Source: Candidatus Methylomirabilota bacterium (GTDB lineage: Bacteria > Methylomirabilota > Methylomirabilia > Rokubacteriales > CSP1-6). From it: DNA of 64,000 nt. Location of the stretch: the NCBI GenBank assembly GCA_046726415.1, contig JBKPAK010000015.1:14279-78278 (forward strand). The letters are read 5' to 3'. The first letter of the stretch is position 1; every line of letters begins with the position of its first letter. Position numbers and translations under genes: made by a program. The notes beneath the pieces were generated by a model. That model did not search any database, had not been told where the DNA came from, and saw nothing but the letters and a program-made list of their open reading frames with translations. Of the stretch, positions 1,859-51,312 are shown piece by piece.

Positions 1859-2284
1859 TCATTCGACGAGGTGGCTATGGATGCTGATCTCAGAGGACAG
1901 GGTCTGGTGGACCGGACACCGCTCGGCGATCTCTAGGAGCCGCGCTCGCTGCTCGTCGGTCAGGGCGCCCCGGAGGGTGATCTCGCGCTCGATCCGGTCG
2001 AGCTTGCCCTCCTTGGTCTCGCACTCGGCGCAGTCTGCCGCATGGATCTTCGAGTGCTGCAGGCGAACCTCCACGCCCTCCAGGAGCCACTGCTTGCGCC
2101 GTGCGTACATCGCGATGGTCATGGACGTGCACGCGCCGAGTGCGGCCAGGAGGAAGTCGTAGGGGGACGGGCCGTGGTCGGCGCCGCCGGCAGACGCCGG
2201 CTCGTCCGCCTGCAGCCGATGTTGTCCGGCCTCGATCTCCTGGGTAAATCCCCTCGCGCCGCCGCGAACGATGACCGTAGCCAT
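1859..2284 (-). CDS. OsmC family protein (YhfA-like, Cys form)
   Basis: DEP...[22 protein letters not shown] and ERCPVH motifs; ATG 2284 with GAGG upstream. Confidence 0.92.
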
Positions 2285-46942: not shown

Positions 46943-47467
46943 CTAGCGCTCCAGTTCCACCCCAAGCGCCTCGTTGAAGCGGTTCGTGAAGTTGGCGGCC
47001 GCGATGGAGAGCGTGAGCTGCACGAGCCCTTCGGGCGCGAGACGCGCGCGGAGCGCCTCCACCAGAGCGGGATCGACCTGCACCGTGTCCGTCATCTCCT
47101 CGGCGTAGCGAATCACCAGCCGCTCCAGCTCCGAGAACAGCGGACTGGTCGCGGCGGCCGGCAGGTTCTCGAATTTCTCGCGTGACACGCCGGCCCTCTG
47201 ACCGAGGGCCGAGTTGTGGGTGACTCAGTACGTGCAGCCGTTGAGCTGCGAGACCCGTACGTAGGCGAGCTGGCGAAGGCCGAGATCGAGGGGGCCCTCG
47301 CGCAAGGTGGGGTACCACTGGAGAAAGCGCGGCAGCGAGCGCGCGTGATACGCCATGAGCTTGAAGATGTTGAGGACACGCCCGGATGCCTTCGCGAGGC
47401 CGTCGTAGATCGTCTGGACCTCGGCGGGCACCTCATCGCGTTCGAGATAGGGAAGTCTTGCGCTCAT
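46943..47467 (-). CDS. AhpD/carboxymuconolactone-decarboxylase family selenoprotein (CxxU; UGA at 47227-47225, codon 81)
   Basis: ORFs 47225-47548 and 46943-47188 are one frame: LRQLAYVRVSQLNGCTY*VTHN...FSELERLVIRYAEEMT...NFTNRFN. UGA replaces the second Cys of CxxC; a hairpin follows. Confidence 0.88.
47191..47211 (-). promoter_or_regulatory. Putative bacterial SECIS element
   Basis: CGGCCCUC-GGUCA-GAGGGCCG, stem starting 13 nt after the UGA, loop starts GG. Confidence 0.75.
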
Positions 47468-47595
47468 TCCGCCACCTCCTCCGTGCCGGATCCTAGCAGA
47501 CGCTCTGCCTCGCCGCCGCTTGCACGCCCCGCGGGCGTCTATGTACATTCCTGGTGCTCATGGAGGAGTCGATTTCCCTGGTACCCCTTCGTTGA

Positions 47596-49583: not shown

Positions 49584-50678
49584 CTAGTTGAAGACCACCA
49601 CGCCGCGGGCGACCTGCCCGCTCGTCAGGAGCCTGAAGCCCTCGTTGATGTCGGCCAGGGCGTAGGTCCGACTGACGAGCTCGTCGATCTTCAGCCGGCC
49701 GTCCATGTACAGATTCACCAGGCGGGGAAAGTCGATGTTCGGCCGCACCGAGCCGTACATCGTGCCTTTGATGCACTTCTCCTGCAGGGCCATCGTGTAG
49801 GGCGTGATGGGCGCCCGCACGCTCATCGCGGCCATGCCGACAATGACCGCCGTGCCGCCCGGGCGGATGGCGTCGAGGATCTGCAAGGTGGTGGCTTCGC
49901 CGCCGATGGCGTCGAAGGCGTAGTCGACGCCACGCCCACCGGTGAGCTTGCGGACCTCCTCCACCACATTCTCGCGCGAGGCGTTCACCGTGTGGCTGGC
50001 TCCGAACTCCTTGGCGTAGGCGAGCTTGTTGTCGAGAAGGTCGGCGGCGATAATCTTCTCCGCCCCCACCAGCTTCCCGCCCTGCACGACATTGAGTCCG
50101 ACGCCGCCGCAGCCGACGACGAGCATGGACGCGCCGGCCTCCACTTTCGCGCAGCTCATGACGGCGCCGACGCCGGTCGGCACGCAGCACCCGGTGAGCG
50201 CCGCCTGGGGCCACGGCATGTCCTGACGGATGGGCACCAGCATCTCCGCCGGGCACACCACCGACTCGGCAAACGTCCCGATGCGCGCCATCTGTCTCAG
50301 ATCCTCGCCGTTGCGGCGCATGCGGCAGGTGCCGTCGAGCAGGCCCCACCGCGGCGAGCTGTAGCCATCACACAGGATGGAGCGACCGATGGAGCAGTAG
50401 AGGCAGCGCCCGCAGTGCGGGCGGAAGGAGAAGATGACGTGGTCGCCCGCCTTGACGTTGGTGACGCCGGCTCCGACCTCGTCCACGATGCCCGCCGCCT
50501 CGTGGCCGAGCACCATGGGAAGCGGCAGCGGCCAGTCGCCGTTCATGATGTGCCAGTCGCTGTGGCAGATGCCGGCAGCCTTGACCTTCACCCGCGCCTC
50601 TCCGGCGCGCGGCCCTTCCTGCTGAACGTCGACGACCTGGAGCGGCTCGTTGGCCTTGTAGAGGACGGCTGCCTTCAT
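49584..50678 (-). CDS. Zinc-dependent alcohol dehydrogenase
   Basis: GICHSD, LGHEAAG, CGRCLYC...C, GCGGVG. Confidence 0.95.
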
Positions 50679-50889
50679 CCGGATGCCTCCATACCGACAG
50701 GCTCTGATCGGGGCCCATGGGGCGGTTATTCATGCCGAGGGCGCGATCATGCGGGGGCGCCGCCGGGGTGTCAAGAGGTCGCGGACGAGGTCCAGCGAAA
50801 GGATGTCCCGCTTGACGCCTGTCGCGTCGAGGCGGCATCATCGTCCCGTCATCACGCGACGGTCGACCCGCTCGCGCGAGGAGGAGACC

Positions 50890-51312
50890 ATGAGCAGCGA
50901 CGACAAGATCGATAGCATTCGATCGTCCAGCAGCGGCACCGTAGGGCGTGCGGTGAGTCGGGTGCGGGACGCGCGCCTCACCCTCGATTCGTCGTCCCGG
51001 CCCCAGGCCGACGTCCTAACCAACAGCGAGGCCTTCCTGGCCGGCATCTCGTCGTGCGGCGTCACCCTCATCGAGGCCTATGCCCAGGAGACCAACGTCC
51101 CCTTGAAGGGGATGGACGTTACCATCGAAGGCATCCGCACGGCAAGCGAGCCCAACCGGTTCGCGGGCGTGACGATGCGCTTCCAGCTGGGAGGGGTGAG
51201 CCAAGCGCAGGCGGAGCATCTCGTCGAGACTTACAAGGGTCGCTGACCCCTCTACCGCACGGTCGCGGCCGCGACCGCAGTGAAGATCGACGTCACCACC
51301 GTCCATGCGTGA
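50890..51312 (+). CDS. OsmC family selenoprotein (UGA at 51244-51246, codon 119)
   Basis: GAGGAG RBS; EAFLAGISSCGVT...HLVETYKGR*PLYRTVAAATAVKIDV. UGA aligns with the Cys of the family's RCPV motif (ERCPVHQTL in 1859-2284); a hairpin follows. Confidence 0.87.
51260..51277 (+). promoter_or_regulatory. Putative bacterial SECIS element
   Basis: CGGUCGC-GGCC-GCGACCG, stem starting 13 nt after the UGA, loop starts GG. Confidence 0.75.

Follow-up and report, generated by a model that had tools for sequence, protein, structure and literature searches.

A second form of OsmC-like selenoprotein, with predicted selenocysteine at the Cys-Pro site, widespread in soil bacteria

The gene at positions 50890-51312 of the 64,000-nucleotide stretch of Candidatus Methylomirabilota DNA analysed here (the window) is a second form of OsmC-like selenoprotein, widespread in soil bacteria and absent from the accessible parts of the selenoprotein catalogues examined. 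On comparative evidence its codon 119, UGA, is almost certainly recoded as selenocysteine (Sec), and there is equally little doubt that the gene, as judged from its sequence and that of its relatives, is a real and intact selenoprotein. Sec-containing OsmC-like proteins have been known since 2005 and only the position of the Sec is new.

OsmC-like selenoproteins were first reported with the motif UxxT (Zhang, Fomenko and Gladyshev, 2005; PMC1088965), and in their accessible text a 2008 survey and a 2022 review list them once, as UxxT. A 2026 catalogue of 119 families (PMC13188914) likewise has, in the parts available, a single OsmC-like entry, UxxT; forms that differ in the position of Sec count there as separate subfamilies. 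Deng et al. (2026; via PMC13188914) described 63 selenoprotein genes in a Methylomirabilota genome, together with new candidates. A term search of SelCysML gave no mention of OsmC. No paper on a second-site OsmC/Ohr selenoprotein was found in the literature searched, most subscription papers lying outside that search, and recent catalogues could list one.

Gene, reading frame and predicted product

Translation of the plus strand from 50890 reads MSSDDK...FLAGISSCGVT...ETYKGR-(TGA)-PLYRTVAAATAVKIDVTTVHA-(stop). The SSCG motif occupies residues 54-57 and places Cys56 at the first active-site position. The TGA is codon 119, at the Cys-Pro site 63 residues C-terminal of Cys56, and 21 codons separate it from the stop. 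Two redox residues about 60 apart, the hallmark of the OsmC/Ohr superfamily, are thus present as Cys56 and Sec119. The features of the locus are as follows.

50812..50841, plus strand: promoter-like site TTGACG-18-CATCAT, 9/12 (consensus match only)
50879..50884, plus strand: Shine-Dalgarno-like AGGAGG, 5 nt 5' of the ATG (sequence)
50890..51312, plus strand: coding sequence of the predicted OsmC/Ohr-like selenoprotein, 140 residues, Sec119 (translation, Pfam match, orthologues, model)
51055..51057, plus strand: Cys56 (TGC), first active-site position, CxxT motif (161/161 Sec sequences)
51244..51246, plus strand: in-frame TGA, predicted Sec119, within R-U-P-L-Y where the last helix begins (orthologues, model)
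51247..51309, plus strand: 21 codons 3' of the TGA, forming the last helix (120-128) and last strand (130-138) (model, orthologues)
51310..51312, plus strand: true stop, TGA; TGA or another stop in orthologues (orthologue DNA)

The promoter survey placed sigma-70-like sites at 50746-50841 (two found, 0.1 expected in shuffles). A second match, on the minus strand, lies back to back with 50812-50841 and is oriented for the divergent Zn-dependent dehydrogenase gene at 49584-50678. No terminator-like site was found.

With the TGA read as Cys, the product matched Pfam OsmC (PF02566; cut-off 27.5) at 45.5 bits over model positions 9-99 of 100; when the product was stopped at the TGA the score fell to 28.3 bits and the match ended at model position 80. 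A monomer model built from a 32-row alignment (pLDDT 88, pTM 0.81) has the OsmC fold. Residue 119 lies between helices 105-118 and 120-128, and the final strand, 130-138, is supplied only by read-through. An earlier note on this DNA had read the frame as an OsmC-family gene with a Sec codon at the R-C-P position, and had taken the 21 codons past the TGA as the closing helix and strand of the fold; the translation and the gain in Pfam score bear out the former and the model the latter. Four DNA sequencing runs agree, in the listed letters only, at 51244-51246; among the runs listed as containing the sequence none was of RNA. Since near-identical contigs end at most 24 bases past the codon and one run is possibly the source, this agreement was kept out of the support.

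Orthologues in Rokubacteriales

When 200 genomes of the phylum were searched with a profile, the gene was recovered in 94 of the 145 genomes of the window's order and in none of the 55 outside it, 54 of which carry selA. One TGA was present in 94 of the 96 match rows, the remaining two being fragments that end before the site. Record labels of the relatives were mostly Rokubacteria or Methylomirabilota (best 80 of 107 confirmed); eight of the 80 were labelled otherwise (Binatia 2, Acidoferrum 2, Dormiibacterota, Vicinamibacterales, Enterobacteriaceae and Nitrosotalea) and no evidence of range was drawn from them. TGA occupied the site in all of the best 80 loci, in 78 by script, in L126 by hand, and in L134 with the frame broken two codons later.

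When 130 loci were pooled and L082 (frameshift), L126 (missed by the pattern) and L134 (broken) were set aside, 91 distinct sequences were obtained. All 91 have the TGA and Cys56, followed by an open tail of 19-25 codons, so that the 21 downstream codons are conserved, as the earlier reading requires. The Pro, Leu and Tyr just 3' of the TGA never change, although their codons do (CCC 47, CCG 41; TAC 73, TAT 18), and in the last strand the Val pattern is kept with synonymous variation. Invariant residues combined with synonymous variation indicate that the tail is under selection at the protein level. The terminal stop varies among the orthologues; the codon at the Sec site is always TGA.

Two loci are pseudogenes or assembly errors: L082 (G043:C43), with a frameshift before the second site, and L134, in which TAA two codons past the TGA is followed by unrelated sequence. 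One genome (G015; contigs C148 and C285) holds two divergent second-site copies, with TGA in both.

Selenocysteine machinery

The genome carries the Sec machinery on which the earlier note had made its reading depend. Contig C313 carries selA (592 bits), selB (374 bits) and a tRNA-Sec (anticodon UCA) in a stretch of about 4.3 kb; selD, on contig C223, has an in-frame TGA of its own. Other genes of the same genome end normally at TGA. Among the 94 gene-bearing genomes a selA match was absent in 10, nine of which have tRNA-Sec or a TGA-containing selD; the other, G049 (89% complete), has the gene and gave no match to selA, tRNA-Sec or a TGA-containing selD.

SECIS-like hairpin

51260..51277, plus strand: bacterial SECIS-like hairpin, GGTCGC/GCGACC stem, 4-nt loop, invariant G at +22 (51268) (covariation)

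The hairpin, C-GGTCGC-GGCC-GCGACC-G, extends from +14 to +31 after a 13-nt spacer from the TGA, exactly the spacing reported earlier. Its stability was not higher than that of shuffles of this GC-rich DNA (z +0.36, -0.49 and -0.62); stability was dropped as evidence and comparative tests were used, on which the reality of the hairpin rests.

In Rokubacteriales the stem codons are ACG (90/91), GTC (91/91), GCG (86/91), GCG (91/91) and ACC (89/89), that is, 95-100% one codon, compared with 38-93% for 36 other conserved degenerate codons. The loop codon specifies Ala, Gly, Val or Asp, amino acids whose codons all begin with G, so that the loop keeps its G at +22 whichever of them is encoded. Bacterial SECIS elements are described as having a small apical loop with a G (PMC1088965).

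In a second soil clade, described below, the stem shows compensatory changes. The outer pair +15:+30 is G-C in 53 sequences, C-G in 15 and A-U in one, the switch entailing replacement of Thr by Ser; the pair +21:+24, which closes the loop, is A-U in 43 and G-C in 27. All six stem pairs were kept in 159 of 161 Sec sequences compared with one of four Cys sequences. In 60 of 131 distinct 39-nt segments, hand-picked to include variants and with relatedness not controlled, 98.6% of cells pair and covariation was 0.255, carried by two pairs only; shuffling gave 0.097, with none of 500 shuffles reaching the observed value, and slid registers gave at most 0.079. Taken together, the comparisons support a covarying SECIS as the putative target of SelB.

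A search of the genome for TGA plus the exact stem gave 13 matches, among which only the OsmC-like gene is in a plausible coding frame. Rfam returned two chance-level matches only, under the gathering score. A motif-plus-hairpin survey of the window produced 14 rows, and only the OsmC-like gene and an AhpD-like gene were credible.

That AhpD/CMD-family gene lies at 46943-47470 on the minus strand. Its TGA (47227-47225) falls in the motif C-T-Y-U (CxxU) and is followed by a strong hairpin; read-through yields a 171-residue CMD match, which standard calling splits into two ORFs. By its sequence the gene is a predicted second selenoprotein of the window, of a known kind.

A second clade, the wider family and database entries

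The second soil clade is 34-43% identical to the window protein. Its DNA was taken from the 80 top-ranking of 426 metagenome loci, the ranking being by match to a Cys-type query. Of these 80 loci 77 were parsed; the site is TGA in 73 and TGC or TGT in four. Over all 168 parsed DNA sequences the codon is TGA or Cys and never TAA or TAG. The TGA/Cys column looked for in the homologue alignment is therefore present, with Cys in those four loci and Cys-Pro in database relatives. A profile of this clade gave no match at E 1e-40 in 251 genomes of the phylum, in a search run without a positive control, and the plasmid collection gave none.

The loop preceding helix 1 holds, in this clade (L163-L242), a third Cys within N-G-C-P-G-E, present in 70/70 Sec and 4/4 Cys sequences. 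It is a possible relay cysteine and is missing from the Rokubacteriales clade.

Database entries systematically lose the part of the protein past the TGA. Of 1199 homologues, the best 120 include 118 that span only 80-84% of the query, their annotation stopping at this codon, and four fetched entries, including GenBank MGH7331572.1, end at the Arg before the site. These ends at KGR are not genuine, orthologue DNA having the TGA followed by an open tail. The best 150 of 482 cluster representatives comprise 55 that, judged from protein sequences, end just before the second site, 72 that span it and 23 fragments; nearly all of the 72 have Cys-Pro there. The short look-alike clusters are commonest in Myxococcota, Vulcanimicrobiota and Acidobacteriota (few labelled members), and one has a Dehalococcoidia member; both serve as leads on range only.

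A quick tree of 111 rows put all 19 DNA-verified Sec rows and all 41 short rows in one group, with weak SH-aLRT support of 80. Within it 25 Cys rows are scattered, and 26 Cys-only rows fall outside. The tree, unrooted and poorly resolved, fits a single old gain of Sec with repeated reversion to Cys.

Several relatives (P0124, P0146, P0150, P0157, P0161 and similar) are long proteins of two to four tandem Cys-type domains with signal-peptide-like acidic N-termini, some with extra C-terminal domains, and are possibly exported OsmC-fold enzymes. Single proteins of the close clade (P0037, P0255 and P0017) have Arg, Trp or Cys at the Sec position; these variants, some with other odd substitutions, may be sequencing errors.

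Relation to known OsmC-fold proteins

The published OsmC-like selenoprotein family (NF041052) has in common with the window protein an OsmC/COG1765-type fold, one Sec plus one Cys, and a SECIS after the UGA. Its representative MCS5647933.1 has U first (GFULLT) and Cys second (KKGCF), whereas the window protein has the reverse arrangement and scored 23 bits against a cut-off of 95. The first site was TGC or TGT in 161/161 Sec sequences, so the UxxT of the published family is absent. None of the NCBIfam models was passed by the product.

Ohr and OsmC use the first Cys as peroxidatic and the second as resolving residue and depend on an Arg-Glu pair, which is missing from a third, Ohr-like group described as poorly characterised (PMC5384416, PMC5962072). 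The proteins of the Ohr-like/YhfA third group (1lql from Mycoplasma pneumoniae, 2egt from Aquifex, 2onf from Thermoplasma and 2pn2 from Psychrobacter) resemble the window protein in having two redox sites about 60 apart and an acidic residue at -9. The best structural match was 1lql, the Mycoplasma OsmC-like protein (E 8.4e-8, TM about 0.63), which has R-C-P at the second site, with Cys in place of Sec; 2opl, a solved Ohr-like protein, has Ser there. Identity to the group is only 12-18%, and the window protein has its own Gly-Arg and P-L-Y-x-T-V-A motifs.

Ohr from Xylella, Pseudomonas and Acinetobacter shares the fold and the two-site layout, with weak sequence matches. The Ohr model TIGR03561 gave 25.5 bits against 88.85, the VCPY motif is absent, the catalytic Glu (at -10 in Ohr) is out of register, and the first-loop Arg appears to be so in a weak alignment. 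For OsmC proper (E. coli OsmC, TIGR03562) the fold is common (1nye and 1qwi were matched), but there was no TIGR03562 match at E 0.1, and the OsmC-type Arg of the loop before helix 1 is represented only by Arg37 in 57/91 sequences and by Cys in the second clade. Because the Ohr/OsmC Arg-Glu register is absent and the Glu lies at -9, the protein is placed, by sequence comparison, with the Ohr-like third group. A homodimer with shared active sites is expected by analogy. All functionally named structural neighbours are hydroperoxide-resistance proteins.

Paralogues and gene neighbourhood

Seven OsmC-fold genes were found in the genome (G000): five with Sec at the first site, one with two Cys, and the second-site gene at 50890-51312.

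1859..2284, minus strand: two-Cys OsmC/YhfA-type paralogue, outside the locus (translation, Pfam)
C156:55007-55312, C257:12614-12919, C193:23237-23545, C152:4317-4586 and C193:40977-41252: first-site TGA OsmC-fold genes (L025-L028 and L030)

Three of the five first-site genes pass NF041052; the two that fail, with the motifs GAUKLS and AGUMYG, may represent further unlisted first-site subfamilies. The gene at 1859-2284 had been proposed as the internal Cys counterpart of the Sec gene. Its Cys motif is as read, but it is a distant paralogue (9/32 identities, over a short stretch only) and much closer Cys counterparts exist.

No conserved neighbours were found: with gene-overlapping ORFs excluded, the largest clusters covered 14/79 loci in Rokubacteriales and 5/77 in the second clade. 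The neighbourhood thus gives no hint of substrate or reductant.

Active-site residues and proposed mechanism

50947..50949, plus strand: Arg20, of the Gly-Arg pair conserved where strand 2 begins; a candidate for the active-site Arg, apparently outside the Ohr register (160/161 Sec sequences)
51028..51030, plus strand: Glu47, nine residues before Cys56, an Ohr-like spacing (ten in Ohr) (161/161 Sec sequences)

The Ohr Arg aligned with residues 15-17, and Arg20 lies 3-5 residues later, in an alignment that is weak because loop alignments at about 20% identity are unreliable. In the model Arg20 closes the strand 1-2 loop, where Ohr has its Arg. The acidic residue at -9 is shared with the Ohr-like structures 2opl, 2pn2 and 9wo1. 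Arg118, in 160/161 Sec sequences, precedes residue 119 at the junction before helix 120-128; R precedes the second Cys in 22/49 Cys forms.

In the mechanism we propose, SelB, on the hairpin at +14 to +31, almost certainly directs the reading of UGA119 as Sec. The full-length product would then be an OsmC/Ohr-fold redox enzyme in which, judging from the fold and the invariance of both residues, Cys56 and Sec119 cycle between thiol/selenol and an Se-S bond. This two-residue cycle is the natural reading, as all 161 Sec sequences keep Cys56 and none has Sec in its place. The Sec119 selenolate, self-ionised and at a helix N-terminus beside Arg118, would attack the oxidant, probably an organic hydroperoxide; Cys56 would condense with the resulting selenenic acid; and a dithiol, for example a lipoyl arm, may re-reduce the bond. 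Seven biotin/lipoyl-domain matches, of a generic kind, occur in the genome, and the literature gave no match on which Ohr cysteine is attacked by dihydrolipoamide.

A selenolate next to an unactivated thiol is expected to react first. Cys/Sec pairs, moreover, mark catalytic redox residues (PMC2673044). As Cys56 has no clear activation and Sec normally marks the catalytic residue, we favour an order in which the selenolate attacks and Cys56 resolves, the roles being swapped relative to Ohr, and give this order an even chance of being correct. The earlier note had placed Sec at the nominally resolving site, kept the first Cys, and suggested an unusual mechanism. The machinery, the conservation, the Sec/Cys pairs and the covarying SECIS all support a predicted Sec at the second (Cys-Pro) site alongside a conserved Cys56. 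The assignment of roles, by comparison, had been borrowed from Ohr/OsmC, while this protein falls in the Ohr-like group; with the Arg-Glu register absent, the label "resolving site" may mislead, and the mechanism is one that we infer.

Alternative readings

That the TGA is a true stop, leaving a 118-residue protein or a pseudogene, or that it encodes Trp or Cys under another code, is very improbable. The best database homologues do end at the TGA (118/120), the hairpin, taken by itself, does not exceed shuffles in stability, and 10 gene-bearing genomes lack a selA match; against this, nine of those 10 assemblies have tRNA-Sec or a TGA-containing selD, and a tail outside the stem that varies synonymously, is conserved as protein and supplies the last helix and strand is not that of a terminated gene. 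Nor would a stop be confined to TGA or Cys at this site while the terminal stop varies, and the use of TGA as a normal stop by other genes of the genome also speaks against this alternative.

For a real selenoprotein, the Ohr roles may have been kept: Cys56, activated by Arg20 and Glu47, would be peroxidatic, and Sec119 would resolve fast, limit over-oxidation and ease reduction by the dithiol. We consider this unlikely, though it has to be taken seriously. In its favour, and as the main argument against swapped roles, stand the first-site Sec genes of the same Ohr-like group, both published and the five of this genome, which indicate that the first site can be the nucleophile in this scaffold. 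It agrees as well with the established order in Ohr, and the near-invariant Arg20 and Glu47, the former closing the strand 1-2 loop, could still activate Cys56 from shifted positions. In Ohr itself Arg19 and Glu51 are needed to bring the first Cys to a pKa of 5.9, and mutants (8.1 and 7.2) retain no more than residual activity (PMC5962072). In the window protein, by contrast, the Glu and, as far as the weak alignment shows, the Arg lie outside the Ohr/OsmC register, and the usual coincidence of Sec with the catalytic residue (PMC2673044), together with the greater readiness of a selenolate beside an unactivated thiol, opposes this assignment. Less probable still is that the selenoprotein is no hydroperoxide peroxidase and, on the Ohr-like fold, catalyses Se/S exchange or transfer with a disulfide, persulfide, sulfoxide or electrophile. 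The catalytic Arg and Glu are missing from Ohr-like proteins, one of which showed no peroxidase activity in one laboratory, but activity was detected by another. The third invariant Cys of the second clade (70/70) suggests relay chemistry, the distant Cys relatives are tandem repeats in long proteins, and seven full OsmC-fold genes in one genome suggest specialisation; the functionally named structural neighbours are nevertheless all hydroperoxide-resistance proteins, and the operon context points to no other pathway. Swapped roles are retained as the favoured reading.

Significance

The gene adds a second form to the OsmC-like selenoproteins and corrects a systematic shortening in the databases. 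It also opens a way into the Ohr-like proteins, which are uncharacterised, and into the use of selenium by a soil lineage that is abundant and uncultured. Natural U/C, C/U and C/C versions of a small soluble fold, two of them in one genome, provide a test of selenium use, in which selenium as attacking nucleophile can be compared with selenium as resolving or electrophilic partner. We tentatively suggest, at somewhat below even confidence, a widespread soil family in which selenium at the resolving position is the nucleophile and replaces the Arg-Glu activation of Ohr, within a genome that holds both mirror-image forms (U/C and C/U). If the roles are indeed swapped, the presence of both forms in one genome would amount to a natural experiment on the placement of selenium in enzymes and the reasons for it.
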